A program made the position numbers and the translations under genes. Shown one piece after another: positions 4,595 to 51,252 of a stretch of 64,000 bases of DNA. The first letter of the stretch is position 1; each line of letters begins with the position of its first letter. Source of the stretch: Escherichia coli (GTDB lineage Bacteria; Pseudomonadota; Gammaproteobacteria; Enterobacterales; Enterobacteriaceae); NCBI RefSeq assembly GCF_003334315.1, contig NZ_QOWR01000018.1; one strand, written 5' to 3'. Below the pieces are notes generated by a model, which did not search any database, was not told the DNA's origin, and saw nothing but the letters and a program-made list of their open reading frames with translations.

Positions 4595-5977
4595 TTATCC
4601 CACCAGCATCCAGGTCGCCGGAACTGAGGCAATTAACAGCATGCCAATCAGCACCATTTCCTGACGGTTCAGTACATTATCATGGGTATGCGTTTTGCGC
4701 GCGTACAGGAAAACCAGCAGCCCCGGTGCATACAGAACAACGGATAACAGCAAGTGCATTGGACCAGAGGCGTACAATAACCATAAGCCATAAATGCAGG
4801 CACCGACACCTACCGCTTTATGCAGTGGACGGGTTGCGATTTTCAGCAAGAACGCGCCGACCAGGAAATAGGGCACCAGAATCATTTCTGAGGCGATGGT
4901 CAGCAACGTGTTGTAATCGGAACCGGTCAGCCAGATGAGTACCAGACAAATTTGCACGCAGATGTTGGTCAACCACAGTGAGGCGGATGGCGCAGCTTGT
5001 GCGTTCTGGCGCGCAAAAATGCGCGGGAATGCTTTATGAGTGGCGGCCAGGAACGGTACTTCTGCTGCCATGATGGTCCAGCTTAAGTACGCGCCGCAAA
5101 CGGAAACGATCAAACCGGCAGCGATGATGATTTCGCCCCATGGTCCCATCATTTCCACCATCAGACCGGCCATTGACGGGTTACGAATTTCAGCCAGTTC
5201 AGGACGTGCCACCACACCCAGCGAAAGCAGCGTTACCAGCAAGTAAACGCCCAGAGCGGAGAGAACCGCCAGCAGTGTCGCTTTGCCAACATCACGTTTA
5301 TTACGCGCACGCGCAGAAACAACCACGGCACCTTCCACACCAATGAAAACCCACAGGGTGATCAGCATGGTGTTTTTCACCTGTTCCCAAACGGGTACGC
5401 CAAGTGCAAGTCCGGTGAAGTCGAGCTTGAAGGTATCCAGTTTGAACATCATCATCGCCAGCACAACAAACAGACCCAGCGGCAACAATTTTGCCAGTGT
5501 CGCCACCAGGTTAATGCTGGCAGCGGTTTGCACCCCGCGCAGGATCAAAAAGTGAACAATCCACAATAAAGCCGATGCACCGACTATCGATTGCCAGGTA
5601 TTACCATCGCCAAACAGGCGCAATTCCGGCGTGTCCGTAAAAAAGCTTAACGCGGAAAAAACGATCACCAGATAGGAGACGTTGGCGATGACTGCGCACA
5701 GCCAGTATCCCCATGCGGAACAAAAGCCGATTAGCTCGCCAAACCCTTCGCGGGCATAGGTAAAGATACCGCCGTCAAGTTCGGGACGAATGCGCGTGAG
5801 GATCAGCATGGCAAAGGCCAGCAATAAAATGCCAGCGCCAGTAATACCCCAGCCGATGAGCAGTGCTGCCGGGCTGGCAACTGCCGCCATATTTTGCGGC
5901 AGACTGAAAACACCCGCGCCCAGCATTGAGCTTAATACCAGCGCGGTGAGTGCGCTCAGTCCCAGTTTCTTTTCCAT
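4595..5977 (-). CDS. ydgI: APC-family amino acid antiporter YdgI (arginine/ornithine antiporter-like)
   Basis: 460 aa polytopic membrane protein; synteny. Confidence 0.88.
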   Translation of the reverse strand: MEKKLGLSALTALVLSSMLGAGVFSLPQNMAAVASPAALLIGWGITGAGILLLAFAMLILTRIRPELDGGIFTYAREGFGELIGFCSAWGYWLCAVIANVSYLVIVFSALSFFTDTPELRLFGDGNTWQSIVGASALLWIVHFLILRGVQTAASINLVATLAKLLPLGLFVVLAMMMFKLDTFKLDFTGLALGVPVWEQVKNTMLITLWVFIGVEGAVVVSARARNKRDVGKATLLAVLSALGVYLLVTLLSLGVVARPELAEIRNPSMAGLMVEMMGPWGEIIIAAGLIVSVCGAYLSWTIMAAEVPFLAATHKAFPRIFARQNAQAAPSASLWLTNICVQICLVLIWLTGSDYNTLLTIASEMILVPYFLVGAFLLKIATRPLHKAVGVGACIYGLWLLYASGPMHLLLSVVLYAPGLLVFLYARKTHTHDNVLNRQEMVLIGMLLIASVPATWMLVG

Positions 5978-6162
5978 CGATATCCAGTGATTAAAACGTG
6001 ATAAGAAGAATAAATATTAGGGCAAAACGCATAAAAATGGAGTTTGCCACTGAAGCGCGGAATTTTACGAAGAGATGTGTCTGCATGCAATGGTCGCGGG
6101 GAAATTTGTGACTAAAAATGCGAAAGGCGGCATCAAGCCGCCTTATAGGAGTAACTGAATAG

Positions 6163-7107
6163 TTATTTATACAGATCTGCGCTGACGGTCAGGTTATTAC
6201 CACGTTCCTGCCACTGGCGGGTGATGTGGTAATACTTAGCACCTTTCTTCGCGGCACGTTTCGCAACCTGATAGGAGACTTCGGTCATGTTGCCGTAGTT
6301 GCCAGAGAATTTGATGCTGTCGAACGGGACCATCATCGCTGCGGTCGCTTTGTTCAGTTCTTCGACTTTAGTGCCATCCGGGAGCGTGACGGTGTAACGC
6401 CCACCTTTTGATGACTGGGTTTCAAAGAAGCGACCGACTTCAGAACTTGGTGATGCGGTAGTCGCAACACCCGGGATCTCAACTTTCTTCGCGGCTTCGC
6501 CACCGGCAGCCAGAGCTGCACGTCCTGCTTCGGAATCTGCCGGGATCACATCCGGGCTCTGGACGATACGTTTCTTAGCATCTTTTTTATAGATGAATGC
6601 AGTAATACGCTGGTTGCCGCCCTGGTTGGCATCGATTTGACGAACGATGTAGAAAGAGTAGGCACCTTTCGCTTTTGCCGCTTTGGTGATGGCATCATTG
6701 ACTTCTGGCTGGCTACGATAGAAGCCCTGGACGGTGACCGTGTCAAACGGTTCAATCAGAACAGCCTGATCTTTCGGCAGTTCGACAACACCGTTAATTA
6801 CGCGATTACTTGTTTCTTCTGCTTTTTCAGCATCGGCTTTATAGAGGTCAGCGACCACACGCCAGTTACCGCTGTTACCAAAATCAGAAGTGTCGACAAC
6901 ATAAAAAGAGGTGGCACCTTCTTTATCTGCGCGACGAGAAACGGCTTTCACCGCTTCGCCAATAGCATTAAAACGACCGGTAACCACTACACGGTCAAAA
7001 GGTTTAACCGCTGCCGCTTGCTCCGGTGTCAGTTCTGTTGCTGCGTTAACGGAGAATGCCGTAGCAGAAAGCAGTGCCGACGCCAGGAGGGTGTTCTTAA
7101 GCTTCAT
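6163..7107 (-). CDS. ydgH: periplasmic protein YdgH (tandem DUF1471 repeats)
   Basis: 314 aa with signal peptide and internally repeated segments; synteny. Confidence 0.85.
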   Translation of the reverse strand: MKLKNTLLASALLSATAFSVNAATELTPEQAAAVKPFDRVVVTGRFNAIGEAVKAVSRRADKEGATSFYVVDTSDFGNSGNWRVVADLYKADAEKAEETSNRVINGVVELPKDQAVLIEPFDTVTVQGFYRSQPEVNDAITKAAKAKGAYSFYIVRQIDANQGGNQRITAFIYKKDAKKRIVQSPDVIPADSEAGRAALAAGGEAAKKVEIPGVATTASPSSEVGRFFETQSSKGGRYTVTLPDGTKVEELNKATAAMMVPFDSIKFSGNYGNMTEVSYQVAKRAAKKGAKYYHITRQWQERGNNLTVSADLYK

Positions 7108-43894: not shown

Positions 43895-44173
43895 ATGGCA
43901 CGCAACGTAAAATATTACAATTCTGATAATTCGCCCGTTCTTGCCTGCACGCACGAGCGGTATTCTCACGCATTCAAGTCTGAATGGTTCCAGCACCCTC
44001 CATGCACTGAAGAGCAGGCTGAATGGATAATTCAGTGTTACCGCAGGCGCGGATACGAGGTTAAGAAAGCTCTTAGTCTCGACTACCGTCACTGGATAAT
44101 CTCAGTCAGATTGCCTTACTCCGAACGCCCACCGCGTCCGTCCCGTACATTCCAGCAACGCATCTGGAGGTAA
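43895..44173 (+). CDS. hypothetical protein (92 aa)
   Basis: ORF between rem and ydfU-like gene; its stop lies just before the GGAGG-GTG start of the next gene. Confidence 0.45.
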   Translation: MARNVKYYNSDNSPVLACTHERYSHAFKSEWFQHPPCTEEQAEWIIQCYRRRGYEVKKALSLDYRHWIISVRLPYSERPPRPSRTFQQRIWR

Positions 44174-44174
44174 C

Positions 44175-45224
44175 GTGCGGGTATTACTTCGACCTGTTCT
44201 GGTACCGGAACTCGGGCTGGTGGTCGTTAAGCCGGGCCGTGAATCCATGCCGGTATTCCACAATACCCGGGTACTGGTGGAGCCGGAACCGAAAAGCATG
44301 CGTAATCTGCCGTCCGGGGTCGTTCCTGCCGTTCGCCAGCCGCTGGTGGAAGACAAAACATTGCTGCCGTTTTTCAGTAACGCACGGGTAATTCGTGCTG
44401 CTGGTGGTGCTGGTGCATTGTCTGACTGGCTGTTGCGCCATATTAAATCCTGCCAGTGGCCACACGGCGATTATCATCACAGCGAAACCGTTATTCACCG
44501 TTATGGTACCGGCGCAATGGTGTTGTGCTGGCACTGCGACAACCAGCTGCGTGACCAGACATCCGAATCACTCGAGCAACTTGCTCATCAAAACCTGTCA
44601 GCATGGATGATTGACGTCATCGGTCACGCAATAAGCGGTACGCAGGAGCGTGAATTATCTCTGGCTGAATTATCCTGGTGGGCGGTCCGCAATCAGGTGG
44701 CGGACGCGCTACCGTAAGTGGTATTACGTCGCTCGCTGGGATTACCAGCGGAAAAAAACTGCTCGGTGTACCGCGAAAGCGACATCGTACCGGGAGAGCA
44801 GACCGCCACCAGCATATTGAAACAGCGCACAAAAAATCTTGCACCGTTGCCTCACGCCCACCAGCAACAAAACCCATCACAGGAAAAGACGGTGGTAAGC
44901 ATCACCGTTGATCCAGAGTCTCCGGAATCTTTCATGAAGCTGCCTAAACGTCACCGTTGGGTTAAGGAGAAATACACACGCTGGGTTAAGACACAGCCGT
45001 GTGCTTGCTGCGGTATGCCAGCCGACGATCCGCATCATCTGATTGGTCACGGGCAGGGCGGAATGGGAACCAAAGCACATGATCTCTTTGTGTTGCCTTT
45101 GTGCAGAAAGCATCACGACGAGTTGCATACGGATACCGTGGCATTTGAAGAGAAGTATGGCTCCCAACTGGAGCTGATTTTTCGATTTATCGATCGCGCG
45201 CTGGCAATTGGTGTGCTGGCCTAA
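44175..45224 (+). pseudogene. YdfU-like (DUF968-type, Cys/His-rich) gene interrupted by an in-frame TAA at 44715-44717
   Basis: ORFs 44175-44717 and 44718-45224 are in the same frame separated by one stop codon; combined length 349 codons. Confidence 0.55.
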
Positions 45225-45241
45225 TTTTGTGGAGTAAGTTG

Positions 45242-45619
45242 ATGCGTGATATTCAGATGGTTCTTGAGCGTTGGGGGGCATGGGCGGCTAATAATCATGA
45301 AGATGTGACCTGGTCGTCCATTGCCGCCGGTTTTAAGGGATTAATTCCTTCAAAAGTAAGATCTCGTCCGCAATGCTGTGACGATGACGCGATGATCATT
45401 TGTGAATGTATGGCTCGCCTGAAAAAAAACAACAGCGATTTACATGATTTATTGGTGGACTATTATGTCGGCGGCATGACTTTTATGGCGCTTGCACGTA
45501 AGCATGGGCGATCTGATTGTTGGGTTGGCAGGATGCTCCAGAAAGCTGAGGGCGTAGTGGAGGGCATGCTGATGGTGTTGGATCTCCGATTGGAGATGGA
45601 TGCTGATTGTTCGAAATAA
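45242..45619 (+). CDS. late-gene antitermination protein Q (QuuD-like, 125 aa)
   Basis: [24 protein letters not shown]...; position immediately upstream of the lysis region; GGAG RBS. Confidence 0.7.
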
Positions 45620-45718
45620 TTAAAGGAAAAGTTGCTGTCTGATTTTCATTAGTCTAACATTTTAAATGTTGGAATCGCAACGTAGTTATTATCATATAAC
45701 AGCTTGTTTCCTGATTTA

Positions 45719-45747
45719 GCCAGCCTCCCCAAAGGCTGGTTTTTTTC
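45719..45747 (+). terminator. rho-independent terminator downstream of Q (tR'-like)
   Basis: CCAGCC-tccccaaa-GGCTGG hairpin followed by TTTTTTT. Confidence 0.7.
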
Positions 45748-45774
45748 TAATAAGTATCATTTCGGGTGGGGATT

Positions 45775-46299
45775 TTATTGTTTAACCCATAATAGTTCAT
45801 TGACATTGAATCCCAACTTTTGAGCGGTACGCACATAGTCTGCTTTTACATTATCTGGAATAGTTTGGGTCCTTGCCAGAATCCATAGGTATTCTCTGTT
45901 CGGACCACTGACAAGAGCATACTTATACTCATCATCCAGCTTGATTACATTATAGCCACCATAGAAGGGGCCAAAAAACGAAACTTTCAACGCTGCAGTT
46001 TTAGTATCTCCAGTAAAGTATGCTTTACCTTCGCTCTCGCTCCATTTGTTTTTCGTTGGATCGTATCCACGGTTAAGTACGCGAATCCCTCCGTCGTTCC
46101 GTTTTTCATAAGTAGCGCTGACCTGTTCCAGACCACGTTCGAACCAGTTCTCGAGGCGAGCTATTTCATACCATTTTCCGAGGTAGCGGTTGGCGTCAAA
46201 ATTTGTAATCGGCTGCACACCTTTAGGTGGTGTCGGGGCCTTACATGCTATAAGAGTGAAAGAGAGTGCAATGCCAGTCAACACAGGCCATAACTTCAT
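45775..46299 (-). CDS. Blc-like outer membrane lipocalin lipoprotein (174 aa)
   Basis: Signal peptide with lipobox LIAC; lipocalin motifs (GKWYEIARL, YALVSGPNREYLWILAR). Confidence 0.75.
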   Translation of the reverse strand: MKLWPVLTGIALSFTLIACKAPTPPKGVQPITNFDANRYLGKWYEIARLENWFERGLEQVSATYEKRNDGGIRVLNRGYDPTKNKWSESEGKAYFTGDTKTAALKVSFFGPFYGGYNVIKLDDEYKYALVSGPNREYLWILARTQTIPDNVKADYVRTAQKLGFNVNELLWVKQ

Positions 46300-46491
46300 A
46301 ATAAATCCTGTACTTTTGATAGTTGAGAGTAAGTATGAAAGATAGATGAGTACGACCGATCACTTAAAGAACTTTCCTACTATATTAGGAATAGTCAATA
46401 ACAGAAAAATTGTCAGTGATGAAGCCAGAAAGGCAATTTAGTCCGTGCACTACAAAGTTTATGTGTTAATGAATTAGTCAAGGGGGAGGAA

Positions 46492-47451
46492 ATGATAAAA
46501 AAACCTGTGATTGGGATCAGCGGTTGTTTGGGCGGTTCTGCTGTTCGTTTTGATGGTGGTCACAAAAGAGATGACTTTTTAATGGACAAATTAGTGGAAT
46601 GGGTAACATTCAGACCAGTATGTCCGGAAATGGCTATAGGGCTGCCAGTTCCGCGTCCTGCTCTACGACTTGTGCGCTCGAAGCAAGGAAATATACGGAT
46701 GTGTTTCAGCCACGACCAGAATGAGGATGTGACAGAGAGAATGACAGAGTTTAGTCGTTCTTATATGGACAAATTAAAGGATGTATCGGGGTTTGTGGTT
46801 TGTGCTAAATCTCCCAGCTGTGGCATGGAGCGCGTGCGTGTCTATGATGAAAATGGTAATCGAGGTCGTAAAGATGGAGTGGGACTATTTACGAGCACTT
46901 TGATGGAAAAGTTTTCCTGGCTACCGGTTGAAGAGGATGGGCGATTACATGATCCAGTGCTTCGTGAGAATTTTATTGAAAGAGTTTTTGCTTTGCATGA
47001 GCTCAATCACCTTTACAAGGAGAAATTATCAAGAAGAGAGTTATTAGCTTTTCATAGTCGTTATAAGCTTCAGTTGTTGGCGCATAGCCAGGCAGGCTAT
47101 AAAGATATGGGACCATTTGTGGCTGCAATACACGAGTGGGCGGACCTTGAATCATACTTTGAGGTGTATCGTGATAATCTGATGGCGATTCTCAGAAAAC
47201 CAGCATCACGTAAAAATCACACGAATGTGCTGATGCATATACAGGGGTATTTTAGTAATTACTTAAGTACACGCCAGCGTAAAGAGTTGAGCGAGGTTAT
47301 ACTTAACTATCGCTTTGGCACATTGCCTCTTCTTGCGCCGTTGACTCTGCTGAAGCATTATCTGGGTGAGTATCCTAATGATTACTTGCTTACACAGAAT
47401 TACTTCGATCCCTATCCGGAAGAACTGGCTCTAAGACTGATGGTGAATTAA
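46492..47451 (+). CDS. DUF523/DUF1722-family protein (YbgA/TudS-like, 319 aa)
   Basis: N-terminal IGISGCLGGSAVRFDGGHKRD ... VCPEMAIGLPVPRPALRLV typical of DUF523 as recalled; AGGGGGAGGA RBS. Confidence 0.55.
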   Translation: MIKKPVIGISGCLGGSAVRFDGGHKRDDFLMDKLVEWVTFRPVCPEMAIGLPVPRPALRLVRSKQGNIRMCFSHDQNEDVTERMTEFSRSYMDKLKDVSGFVVCAKSPSCGMERVRVYDENGNRGRKDGVGLFTSTLMEKFSWLPVEEDGRLHDPVLRENFIERVFALHELNHLYKEKLSRRELLAFHSRYKLQLLAHSQAGYKDMGPFVAAIHEWADLESYFEVYRDNLMAILRKPASRKNHTNVLMHIQGYFSNYLSTRQRKELSEVILNYRFGTLPLLAPLTLLKHYLGEYPNDYLLTQNYFDPYPEELALRLMVN

Positions 47452-47848
47452 CTGTATGCGATATCATCTGAAAGTGATGAGTTCCTGTATGCAGGATATT
47501 TACAATCGTAAAAACTACGCTATGATGCTCATAGTGTCAGTTTTTATAAAAATCCTGTTCACGCTAAAGAAAACATTGAGATGCAATTTAATGTTGGTAA
47601 ACATACCAGCCCCAAACGATTTTATTCAATCTGTTTTTATATGAAGATATTTCAAGTGAATATTAAGAGTATATAATATTATTATTGCACGCAGCTATTA
47701 TAATATAACAGATTAGTTTAATGATTTGTTTTTTGTGAGTTAAACACATGGTTTTATAGTTGTGATGCAATGAGATTTTCCTTATTGTTGAACTGGCGAA
47801 TATTGATTTTCCACCTATACTTACCTGGTGTAACCCCAATGATATCAG

Positions 47849-48571
47849 GTGGATAATATGCCATACATATGTTCTATCATTTTGGTGTTGAACTCGTTTG
47901 GTGTCCGAATTGGTAAAGAAGATATTTTGTTTAAAAAAGGAAATGCTGTCCTCATTGAATACAATTTAAAAGATCTTTTTTCGTCAAATACAGATCATCT
48001 AATGATCGTAGATGTTGAGGAGAAAACAGTTAATGATTTCTTTAAAAACTACACACTCTCACCTTTTTCTGTAAGAAGGTTTTATCCGTCATACTTGATA
48101 GTAGAATGTGAAGATTTTTCATTGTTAAAGAACTTGGTTGCATGCTTGAATTGTGATAGCAAAACCGTGGATGTAGTTAGAAATCAAATATCACTTGCAT
48201 GTCTTGCTGTCTTATCTTCAGAGAAAATAGTGCAAAGTTTTTTGTTCGGAAGTCTTAATAGCTTAGGTTGTAAAGTTAAGGCTATTATTCACTCGGATAT
48301 CTCAGCGTCATGGAGACTTTGTGATATATCTTCAAGATTATATATGAGCGAGAGTTTGTTAAAAAGAAAATTAAAAGACGAAGGATTATCGTTTAGTAAA
48401 TTAATTCTTGAAGAACGAATGATGATGGCGCAAAGATTATTGATCTACAGTAACCATACTGTCGGCAAGGTGGCGGGAATATGCGGGTATGACAATGCAT
48501 CATATTTTGTAAGTGTTTTTAGAAGATATTTTGGTGTGCCTCCGCACCAATATTTATCAAGATTTTCTTAG
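47849..48571 (+). CDS. AraC-family transcriptional regulator (240 aa), AT-rich gene
   Basis: C-terminal AraC HTH signature (...GICGYDNASYFVSVFRRYFGVPPHQY). Confidence 0.75.
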   Translation: MDNMPYICSIILVLNSFGVRIGKEDILFKKGNAVLIEYNLKDLFSSNTDHLMIVDVEEKTVNDFFKNYTLSPFSVRRFYPSYLIVECEDFSLLKNLVACLNCDSKTVDVVRNQISLACLAVLSSEKIVQSFLFGSLNSLGCKVKAIIHSDISASWRLCDISSRLYMSESLLKRKLKDEGLSFSKLILEERMMMAQRLLIYSNHTVGKVAGICGYDNASYFVSVFRRYFGVPPHQYLSRFS

Positions 48572-48761
48572 AAGATATGATGTGATGGCATTTTATAAAG
48601 TTATTTTTTGAAGTGTAAGATTATACGATATTTTTAGCTACGCCAGAATAATTGCTGGCGTTTTTCTTTTTGAATAGATGTTCGGGCCTTACGCTAATGT
48701 AACTTCTTTCCTTCTTCGAACCAAACCGTGTACACCATCCGTTATCTGCGGAGGTGAGGCT

Positions 48762-48977
48762 ATGAAATCCATGGATAAGTTAACAACGGGCATCGCCTAC
48801 AGCACCTCTGCAGGCAGTGCTGGCTACTGGTTTTTACAGTTGCTCGATAAAGTCACACCCTCACAGTGGGCGGCAATAGGTGTATTGGGTAGTCTGGTAT
48901 TTGGCATGCTGACGTATCTGACAAACCTTTATTTCAAGATTAAAGAAGACAGGCGTAAGGCTGCGAGAGGAGAGTAA
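48762..48977 (+). CDS. phage holin (EssD/EssQ-like class II, 71 aa, possible dual start MKSM)
   Basis: [71 protein letters not shown]; GGAGGTGAGG RBS. Confidence 0.85.
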
Positions 48978-48981
48978 GACA

Positions 48982-49200
48982 ATGACTAAAAACTATGAAC
49001 TGATTGTGAAAGGGACCCGCAATTTTGAGAATAAAGTTACGGTAATCTTAACGTTACAGGACAAAGAACGTTTTGCCGGTGAAATTTTTGATCTGAACAT
49101 CAACCTTGAGCGACTTGAAGGAGCTGGTTTGGATTATTATGAAGTTACTGCGGTAAAACATGCCAAACAGTTCTTGAGAGATTTGGCTGAAAAAATATAA
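48982..49200 (+). CDS. hypothetical protein (72 aa) inserted between holin and endolysin
   Basis: ATG with AGAGGAGAG RBS, 4 nt after the holin stop. Confidence 0.5.
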   Translation: MTKNYELIVKGTRNFENKVTVILTLQDKERFAGEIFDLNINLERLEGAGLDYYEVTAVKHAKQFLRDLAEKI

Positions 49201-49224
49201 AGCGGCATTACTGCCGCTTAGAAA
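49201..49224. terminator. bidirectional hairpin between convergent small genes
   Basis: AGCGGCA-tta-CTGCCGCT stem-loop. Confidence 0.45.
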
Positions 49225-49521
49225 TTATTCAATGTCTGGTAGCTTATCAAAGATTTCGGATACTCTTATATTTGTCATATAAGCAAATTGAGATTCTGCC
49301 AGCTCTTTGGGTGATTTTCCCGCTTTTTCTGAGCCAAAAATTGTTTCTAAAGCCAGCATGTTATATTTGAGAACCTCTTCTCGAGTTTTACCTGATAATT
49401 TTGCGGTAACAGCAATATAAAAAGGCAACACTTTATCCAGAAGGTCGTTGTGTTTTGTCAGTTGTGGTAATACCACATCAAGTTGCTTACTGATTGGTTT
49501 GAATGGATCTATACCGTTCAT
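49225..49521 (-). CDS. hypothetical protein (98 aa), opposite strand within the lysis cassette
   Basis: ORF convergent with the 72 aa gene; no recognizable family. Confidence 0.5.
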   Translation of the reverse strand: MNGIDPFKPISKQLDVVLPQLTKHNDLLDKVLPFYIAVTAKLSGKTREEVLKYNMLALETIFGSEKAGKSPKELAESQFAYMTNIRVSEIFDKLPDIE

Positions 49522-49648
49522 AGTTACATTCCCTTATCAGAGGTAATCAGCCATCCCCCCTTTATTACACACGCCAGTATCCACCACTGACGGGCTGAGT
49601 GCTTAACATATCTAGAGATTAGAAACTGATAAATCCTGATAAATATCC

Positions 49649-50676
<1,028 letters not shown>

Positions 50677-51039
50677 ATTAATATTAAATCGGATTATTTT
50701 TAGCGCTGAATGTGAAATTTAAATAAAAAGGACTCTTCCATGAGTCAAAATCCTTGAAATCTTAAGGGTAAGATAAAAGGTCATTAGACAGAATGACACG
50801 TTTTATTAATAAATAAAGCTATTGTTTCATTCGTGTGTTTTTCTTTACAAAAGTAATCCTTGCTATGGTTGGTTAATCATGCGTTAATGGTGTTCTGGTT
50901 TGTTACAAAATTATCTGAAGCAGTCATTGTTATAATTTTATTATTTGTACCTCTTGAGATTTCCTTGTTGGTTTTTCTCTCTGATATTTTTTTTCGGACC
51001 ATTCTGCCCAAGGGCTAACTTCTTCAAAAGGTAATAATG

Positions 51040-51252
51040 ATGTCTAACAAAATGACTGGTTTAGTGAAATGGTTTAACCCTGAAAAAGGTTTTGGTTTCA
51101 TCACGCCGAAAGATGGTAGCAAAGATGTGTTTGTCCATTTCTCAGCTATTCAGAGCAACGATTTCAAAACGTTAACTGAGAATCAGGAAGTCGAATTTGG
51201 TATTGAGAACGGACCTAAAGGCCCCGCGGCTGTTCATGTTGTGGCACTTTGA
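51040..51252 (+). CDS. cold shock protein (CspA family; CspB/CspI-like)
   Basis: [38 protein letters not shown]... RNP1/RNP2 motifs. Confidence 0.9.

Follow-up and report, generated by a model that had tools for sequence, protein, structure and literature searches.

RudS is a [4Fe-4S] enzyme in which TudS is fused to DUF1722 and which converts 4-thiouridine (s4U) in tRNA to uridine (Jamontas et al., NAR 2024, PMC11417400). The enzymes described in that work include RudS_vir, which is gp66 of Escherichia phage 1H12 and carries Cys12, Cys44 and Cys110, a numbering that is also listed for RudS_ST, and RudS_KT, whose catalytic residues are E51, S111, S113 and R60 (PMC11417400). On overexpression, every RudS variant tested, RudS_vir included, lowered the s4U content of E. 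coli tRNA, and overexpression of RudS_KT reduced the growth delay that ultraviolet A (UVA) causes in E. coli (PMC11417400). It is known that rudS genes in general often lie within light-responsive operons; the phage rudS gene was treated on its own there, and the main text of that paper contains neither the word "lipocalin" nor the word "AraC" (PMC11417400). The subject of the present analysis is a stretch of 64,000 nucleotides from contig NZ_QOWR01000018.1 of Escherichia coli (assembly GCF_003334315.1), hereafter the window, in which a lambdoid prophage carries a gene of this kind between an antiterminator Q gene and a holin gene, together with a lipocalin gene on the opposite strand and a gene for an AraC-type regulator. 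We take cspB/cspF in the K-12 prophage Qin and stx in Stx phages to be cargo at the same place, the Q-S junction of lambdoid phages.

The regulator calls for comparison with PatE and PsrB. Both activate gadE and hdeAB along with related genes of acid resistance, and both repress the type III secretion system of the enterocyte effacement locus (LEE) indirectly (reviews PMC10877973, PMC8565820). Set against these described systems, the three genes as a whole are likely, in our judgement, to be a composite lysogenic-conversion ("moron") cassette in the Q-to-holin slot.

Results

Three open reading frames (ORFs) lie between Q (45242-45619) and the essD holin gene (48762-48977), and the cargo extends from about 45620 to about 48740 (Table 1). 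A model that had only the letters and a list of ORFs to work from (the sequence-only reading) had placed three genes there, and the ORF positions confirm it. Its assignments of the products to the lipocalin, DUF523/DUF1722 and AraC families were upheld by hidden Markov model searches with Pfam and NCBIfam. In the 319-aa protein encoded in the middle, Pfam recognises the 2-thiouracil desulfurase domain PF04463 at residues 7-149 (1.2e-39) and DUF1722, PF08349, at residues 192-309 (9.4e-40). The protein has C12, C44 and C110, and an alignment of 12 homologues shows no variation at these cysteines or at E46, R55, S107 and S109. The spacing of the latter four residues from the cysteines equals the published spacing in RudS_KT, which itself stands outside the alignment. 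Escherichia phage 1H12 carries the cassette with one RudS copy in it, and the window protein is 91.8% identical in amino acid sequence to gp66 of this phage (RudS_vir), both being 319 aa long. We identify the middle cargo gene as rudS, encoding a predicted tRNA 4-thiouridine desulfidase, and as the same gene as that of RudS_vir from the same cassette. The identity to RudS_vir is also what suggests that the window allele would convert s4U to uridine.

The lipocalin matches Pfam Lipocalin_2 at 8.6e-43 and the NCBIfam Blc subfamily at 312.6 bits, above the cut-off of 267, and its best solved relatives are the E. coli Blc structures (8e-67). A lipobox, L-I-A-C, was read by eye at residues 16-19, the N-terminus being MKLWPVLTGIALSFTLIAC-KAP with the lipobox cysteine at Cys19. 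The protein is probably exported as a lipoprotein and is likely, by homology to Blc, to bind lipid in the envelope. Its identity to K-12 Blc is 59%, as against 70-80% to the rudS-adjacent lipocalins of other Enterobacterales. Orthology with the host blc gene, which is linked to ampC, was considered and rejected on the low identity to K-12 Blc and on the synteny with rudS.

The third gene encodes a regulator with a C-terminal double helix-turn-helix of the AraC type (Pfam HTH_18 at 4.2e-17 and HTH_AraC at 2.2e-07). Its likely start is the ATG at 47858, which gives 237 aa, has AGGTGG ahead of it and agrees with the RefSeq annotation, and not the GTG at 47849. As PatE and PsrB we used the sole AraC-type genes in the OI-8 and OI-57 stretches of the EDL933 re-sequence. 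The OI-50 stretch of the same sequence holds no AraC gene, and the comparison thus covers PatE and PsrB, not PsrA. The regulator aligns with both proteins end to end and almost gap-free, at 48% identity over 237 aa for PatE and 38% over 236 aa for PsrB, while PatE and PsrB are 37% identical to each other. The best NCBIfam match is YdeO (1e-32), but the 113.8 bits lie below the curated cut-off of 348, so that the identity with YdeO was rejected and YdeO is regarded as a relative. The GadX DNA-binding domain is the nearest solved structure, followed by CsvR, Rns and ToxT, and a homologue search with the regulator returned generic names only. On these alignments we place the regulator as an uncharacterised clade within the described PatE/Psr family.

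Two further genes were considered beside it. The prophage gene orf10 of avian pathogenic E. coli (PMC7724020) is unrelated, because its deletion primers have no match in the window. The gene overexpressed as "PatE" in strain Nissle 1917 (CIW80_12240) is only possibly the window allele; RefSeq RS12240 is bcsZ.

The lipocalin and rudS genes belong together outside phages as well. The closest RudS proteins from outside E. coli are encoded on the chromosomes of Citrobacter, Serratia, Klebsiella and Enterobacter, with 70-75% identity. In a survey of Enterobacterales chromosomes, in which each species was represented by one genome, we looked in detail at the best 80 rudS loci. A lipocalin gene on the opposite strand lies just upstream of rudS in 30 of them. 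The order lipocalin-MerR-rudS is found in 22, and in 8 (Citrobacter sedlakii, Kluyvera species and Huaxiibacter) lipocalin and rudS are directly divergent with neither MerR nor AraC. The gap between the two genes in Citrobacter sedlakii is 187 bp, compared with 192 bp in the window. In the Serratia rubidaea locus the order is lipocalin (minus strand), MerR and rudS, and the lipocalin and RudS are 75% and 74% identical to the phage proteins. MerR with rudS was seen in 8 of the 80 loci, and in 31 a DUF3833/CFA-synthase-like operon (CFA, cyclopropane fatty acid) ends with rudS. An AraC gene stands beside rudS in none of the 80. A search with the Serratia MerR protein (tblastn) found no MerR remnant, whether between the two genes or anywhere else in the window. 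Because the same divergent pair is present in Enterobacterales loci and the phage lipocalin is only distantly similar to Blc, at the 59% identity given above, we regard lipocalin-rudS as an old chromosomal pair that was acquired together by a phage, the MerR gene being left behind.

The survey also gave two observations on rudS loci of other kinds. The alternative operon with rudS, which is conserved in many Enterobacterales (L054, L055, L058, L059 and 31 of L060-L139) encodes SnoaL, a short-chain dehydrogenase/reductase, an amine oxidase, DUF1365, a CFA-synthase-like protein, DUF2878, a 175-aa protein without a Pfam match and DUF3833. Citrobacter braakii ATCC 51113 has two copies of rudS (L061, L062).

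A second prophage lineage has a rudS gene (72% identical) but neither lipocalin nor AraC; the gene stands by itself in the nin region, with RusA, DUF968 and Q downstream of it. Its members are L046-L051 from IMG/VR and L075 from Citrobacter sp. MGH106, with rudS at 6001-6957 or 5001-5957. This looks like an independent acquisition, so that temperate phages would have taken up rudS at least twice.

The araC gene appears to have had a history separate from that of the pair. Its GC content is 33%, compared with 43-44% for lipocalin and rudS and 47% for Q. The AT-rich stretch that the sequence-only reading had noticed around the regulator is evident in the composition of the window, with 30-34% GC over 47400-48600 and 43-55% in the flanks. 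Synonymous divergence (dS) between alleles is 0.33-0.60 for araC and 0.04-0.30 for lipocalin and rudS, homology between cassette alleles breaks at 47667-47762, and araC is followed by a terminator of its own, at 48640-48661. In locus L166 a PatE-like AraC gene (4992-5735), whose product is 49% identical to the window protein, is the sole gene separating a 235-aa Q-like protein from an essD-type holin, an arrangement that is a simpler version of the same slot. Because the pair is a chromosomal unit that lacks MerR here and araC has a separate history, we consider it probable that the cassette is composite, made up of a captured lipocalin-rudS pair without MerR plus, separate from it, a PatE-family gene that has a terminator to itself.

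The gene arrangement is not a chance one, as it recurs across genomes, phages and IMG/VR contigs. Megablast against 5426 complete E. coli genomes found the lipocalin gene in 1135, rudS in 1136 and araC in 922, and the same gene order, over 80% or more of 45200-49000, is kept in 954 genomes. Through the cassette, rudS is present in about 21% of complete E. coli genomes. The lower count for araC fits the divergence of its alleles, the most divergent of which is missed by megablast: 330 genome matches have at least 99% identity and 567 have 80-90%, and an allele with 77% amino acid identity falls below the reach of the program. The same 12 phage records hold lipocalin and rudS, and 12 records, those of IdasGreatGrand and eleven lambda-like phages, hold the AraC clade. 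In IdasGreatGrand and Lambda_ev203, the two records whose annotation was examined, the cassette genes are flanked by Q and the holin. In IMG/VR, 21 loci have the full order Q, lipocalin, rudS, araC, essD, the exceptions being cut contigs or insertions of insertion sequence (IS) elements, as in L029. Q, lipocalin and rudS are upstream in all 20 of the AraC-clade IMG/VR loci that reach far enough. The view of the sequence-only reading that the three genes travel together in lambdoid phages of E. coli therefore agrees with complete genomes, phage records and IMG/VR loci alike.

What moves is larger than the three genes. In four different backbones the homology of the block spans 45200-48977, beginning just ahead of Q and stopping at the end of essD, whereas the nin regions and the lysozyme/Rz genes differ between the same backbones. 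The unit of mobility is the whole Q-to-holin block. Between cassette alleles all three genes are under purifying selection, with a ratio of nonsynonymous to synonymous divergence (dN/dS) of 0.08-0.25 (0.11-0.24 for rudS and 0.20-0.25 for araC).

Some E. coli genomes have up to three copies of lipocalin, rudS and araC, which presumably sit in different prophages. The cassette is interrupted by IS1, IS2, IS3, IS5 or IS1203 in 8 of the 25 best-matching genomes, and the AraC gene of L008 is frameshifted; the block is decaying in some lineages. Nico21(DE3) (NZ_CP053600.1, 1589699-1589845) retains no more of rudS than its first 147 nt, which are 100% identical and annotated as a 2-thiouracil desulfurase family protein. 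This fragment is a remnant of the cassette.

The features of the block are listed in Table 1. Positions 44001-50000 of the window are 99.97% identical to E. coli strain S1-INA-02-B, in which the region lies inside a lambdoid prophage inserted beside rspB, the site of Qin in K-12. The RefSeq annotation of that prophage includes integrase, dicB, hokD, rem, ydfU, Q, lysis genes, cspI, terminase, and head and tail genes. It is apparently complete, an intact Qin-like lambdoid prophage at the rspB site with a late region of the DLP12/QuuD type. The sequence-only reading had described the interval as a cargo slot, in keeping with which DLP12 has nmpC between a homologous quuD (86% aa identity) and essD. 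It had also noted a tR'-like terminator before the antisense lipocalin gene, and a hairpin with a T-run does follow the stop codon of Q, at 45718-45741; a function as tR' is presumed from its position, and no site could be assigned to PR' with confidence.

Table 1. Features of the Q-to-holin block in the window.
Feature	Position	Strand	Description
Q antiterminator, QuuD/DLP12 type	45242..45619	+	125 aa; PHROG 79 anti-termination protein Q-like, 2.8e-50; RefSeq, antiterminator Q family protein; 86% aa identity to K-12 QuuD; left end of conserved mobile block
tR'-like intrinsic terminator	45718..45751	+	Terminator scan and sequence; 9-bp stem, 5 G-C, then T-run; about 100 nt past the Q stop (45619), ahead of the lipocalin stop (45775)
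Lipocalin lipoprotein, Blc subfamily, rudS-linked paralogue	45775..46299	-	174 aa; antisense to late transcription
Lipocalin/rudS divergent intergenic region	46300..46491	.	192 bp; without the MerR gene present here in many chromosomal loci
rudS, TudS(DUF523)-DUF1722 fusion	46492..47451	+	319 aa; strong ribosome-binding site AAGGGGGAGG
AT-rich intergenic region rudS/araC	47452..47857	.	Weak hairpin and T-run at 47517-47537; homology break between cassette alleles at 47667-47762
AraC-like regulator, PatE/PsrA/PsrB family	47858..48571	+	237 aa; 33% GC
Intrinsic terminator 3' of araC	48640..48669	+	7-bp stem, 5 G-C, then TTTTTCTTTTT
essD-type class II holin	48762..48977	+	71 aa; PHROG holin families; RefSeq, essD; right end of conserved mobile block; sequence shared with other phages and with DLP12 stops at 48977

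Terminator-like sites are enriched, with 8 observed and 2.6 expected in the terminator scan. The divergent region 46300-46491 presumably holds the promoters of both lipocalin and rudS. It is conserved among three phage alleles, and no alignment to the chromosomal loci was possible. A search for operators as inverted repeats in both intergenic regions gave weak AT-rich pairs only. An Rfam scan of 45000-49600 gave a sole, sub-threshold match over the terminator hairpin, at 28.6 bits compared with a gathering score of 50.

Outside the cassette, the ydfU gene (DUF968) just upstream of Q has a nonsense codon at 44715-44717 of the window, TAA in place of the GAA of S1-INA-02-B, which splits it into two ORFs of 180 aa and 168 aa. 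In the lysis cassette an antisense ORF of 98 aa (49225-49521, minus strand) lies between a ydfR-like gene and the lysozyme gene. Since it has its own terminator (49219-49200, minus strand) and matches PHROG 25324, a family of unknown function, at 6.8e-61, this ORF, too, may be a moron. Also carried as cargo in the late region are cspI (51037-51252) and a second csp-like ORF 3' of the Rz gene, as in Qin of K-12.

Discussion

We favour the following course of events. A divergent lipocalin-rudS pair would have been captured from an enterobacterial chromosome, out of a MerR-controlled locus, with loss of MerR. RudS, with its [4Fe-4S] cluster held by Cys12, Cys44 and Cys110, would revert 4-thiouridine in host tRNA to uridine, a step for which the erasure of s4U by the 92%-identical orthologue is the precedent, and less of the UVA-sensitive s4U would mean less tRNA cross-linking and less growth delay. 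The lipocalin would be an envelope lipoprotein that is functionally tied to RudS. The independently acquired AraC protein would most likely act in trans on AT-rich host promoters, for example those of gadE and hdeAB, and raise acid resistance, by analogy with the activation of the glutamate decarboxylase (GAD) system by PatE and PsrB. Both rudS and araC are co-oriented with the late operon, so that late transcription would include them and both would also be transcribed by Q-modified RNA polymerase after induction. The lipocalin gene, antisense to late transcription, would be expressed only from its own promoter. In line with a moron, the site lies between conserved phage genes, the cargo varies between related phages (nmpC in DLP12, AraC alone in L166), and the base composition of araC and of the pair is unlike that of Q.

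Several points speak against this course of events. Expression of the three genes in the lysogen is something we infer, along with the targets of the AraC allele and the role of the lipocalin. The promoter scan stood at chance level (14 sites observed, 13.3 expected), and region 46300-46491 has no match of at least 9/12 in the sigma-70-like scan. No close donor was found, the best chromosomal relatives reaching 75% for RudS and 80% for the lipocalin. RudS_vir was less active per protein level among the tested enzymes and was assayed by overexpression only (PMC11417400). PatE and PsrB were picked in the EDL933 re-sequence from where they lie and how they are annotated, without recourse to z-numbers, and the host targets of the window AraC allele are unproven because its identity to these characterised regulators is only 48% and 38%. 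The strict co-occurrence of the AraC clade with lipocalin-rudS, finally, also fits a functional link.

That co-occurrence is the starting point for regarding the three genes as a single module, in which the AraC protein, as the cassette's own regulator, has replaced MerR and switches on the lipocalin and rudS promoters at a host signal. AraC alleles at least 77% identical to that of the window do occur only with Q, lipocalin and rudS upstream, both in the 20 informative IMG/VR loci and in the 12 phage records. The cassette lacks the MerR gene that stands between lipocalin and rudS in 22 chromosomal loci, and the lack of a sigma-70-like promoter in 46300-46491 would fit dependence on an activator. 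However, tight physical linkage within a 3.8-kb block, bounded by the recombination-prone Q and holin genes, suffices to explain the co-occurrence without a functional link. Moreover, AraC is beside rudS in 0 of 80 chromosomal loci, 8 of which have the pair without MerR and AraC, a different prophage lineage has rudS alone, L166 has a PatE-like AraC alone between Q and holin, GC, dS and the homology break point to a separate history, and the characterised relatives regulate chromosomal genes of the host (PMC10877973). The same evidence, together with the terminator of araC, argues against the proposal of the sequence-only reading that AraC is a dedicated regulator of the desulfidase, and we hold the single module to be unlikely. 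It is also doubtful that the cassette is a rewired stress module, that is, the pair minus its MerR switch, now under the PatE-like AraC protein or under Q antitermination, by which the phage imposes a change on the epitranscriptome of the host. If this were true, the erasure of a tRNA modification in about one fifth of E. coli strains would follow gut or acid signals or prophage induction, not light.

RudS might also serve the phage itself, in lytic growth after ultraviolet irradiation, with rudS as the first gene on the Q-antiterminated late transcript. The gene points in the direction of the late operon, no other sense gene comes between it and the tR'-like terminator, its two unrelated positions in the Q-holin slot and in the nin region (L046-L051, L075) suggest repeated selection by temperate phages, and RudS_KT overexpression cuts the UVA growth delay in E. 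coli (PMC11417400). However, RudS removes s4U, and no ability to repair tRNA with existing cross-links is known for it; expression before exposure, in the lysogen, would therefore matter more; in the second lineage, rudS is upstream of Q and so outside the late operon. We give such a role only a small chance, although the gene order agrees with it and it does not exclude a lysogenic-conversion cassette. The sequence-only reading had raised an anti-phage function. Prophage cargo slots often carry defence genes, and tRNA de-modification, or an exported lipocalin lipoprotein that could in principle mask a receptor and block incoming phages, might provide defence or superinfection exclusion. None of seven proteins (the three cargo proteins and four neighbours) matched any of the 5027 PADLOC models at E values up to 0.01, the three cargo PHROG families are of unknown function, and many Enterobacterales have lipocalin-rudS as an ordinary locus of the chromosome that bears no relation to phage regions. 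The proposal thus finds no support, and we consider it very improbable. A composite lysogenic-conversion cassette is the reading that we retain.

The sequence-only reading knew of no described module of this kind. This holds for the three genes as a unit, in that a literature search found no description of a lipocalin-rudS-araC cassette, and does not hold for its parts, since rudS was cloned from this very cassette and tested as RudS_vir (PMC11417400) and the regulator belongs to the described PatE/Psr family. With the central gene published, the regulator family described and the slot a classic cargo site, the cassette is not a new kind of system. Three things appear to be new: that lipocalin-rudS is a conserved chromosomal unit which was captured whole, that about a fifth of E. 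coli genomes contain the three genes as one mobile module, and that the prevalence of rudS is at odds with the statement, in the paper that defined RudS, that E. coli lacks it (PMC11417400).

RudS is the first bacterial eraser of tRNA 4-thiouridine, and an apparently intact copy is spread by a mobile prophage block through about 21% of complete E. coli genomes. Because so many genomes carry the prophage gene, differences between strains in s4U content, UVA response and stringent-response dynamics may depend on the prophage. Through the conserved pairing with rudS, a bacterial lipocalin paralogue acquires a functional context that lends itself to testing. The AraC clade adds a very widespread member to the PatE/Psr family, which links prophages to acid resistance and, in enterohaemorrhagic E. 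coli (EHEC), to type III secretion.

A comparison with the known systems shows what the cassette shares with each. The window protein has in common with RudS_vir the TudS plus DUF1722 architecture, the ligands Cys12/44/110 and the catalytic Glu/Ser/Ser/Arg. The lipocalin resembles E. coli Blc in its Lipocalin_2 fold family, its lipoprotein signal sequence and its GxWYEIAR motif; Blc, however, adjoins ampC, whereas the cassette lipocalin is partnered with rudS, as is the 70-80% identical paralogue at the rudS side in Serratia, Enterobacter, Kluyvera, Citrobacter sedlakii and others. The chromosomal lipocalin-MerR-rudS locus, of which Salmonella orf242-orf319 is the MerR-rudS version, has the same two genes in the same divergent orientation, whereas the phage copy lacks MerR, lies inside a late operon and has gained an AraC neighbour. 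DLP12 of K-12 carries nmpC, on the opposite strand, in the same Q-essD slot, with Q and essD 84% and 89% identical in nucleotides to those of the window; the cargo here differs in being three genes of two origins. The regulator, like PatE and the Psr proteins, is prophage-borne and AT-rich, and its first helix-turn-helix is nearly identical to theirs (WRLxDISSRLYxSESLLKRKLKxEG). PsrB and related genes likewise sit between a Q-type gene and a holin, and genes of the PatE type lie near pinE at the prophage end. In contrast to PatE, PsrA and PsrB, the window clade is separate, with alleles 77-100% identical to each other and at most 51% identical to anything else found, is always linked to lipocalin-rudS, and occurs mostly in non-EHEC strains.

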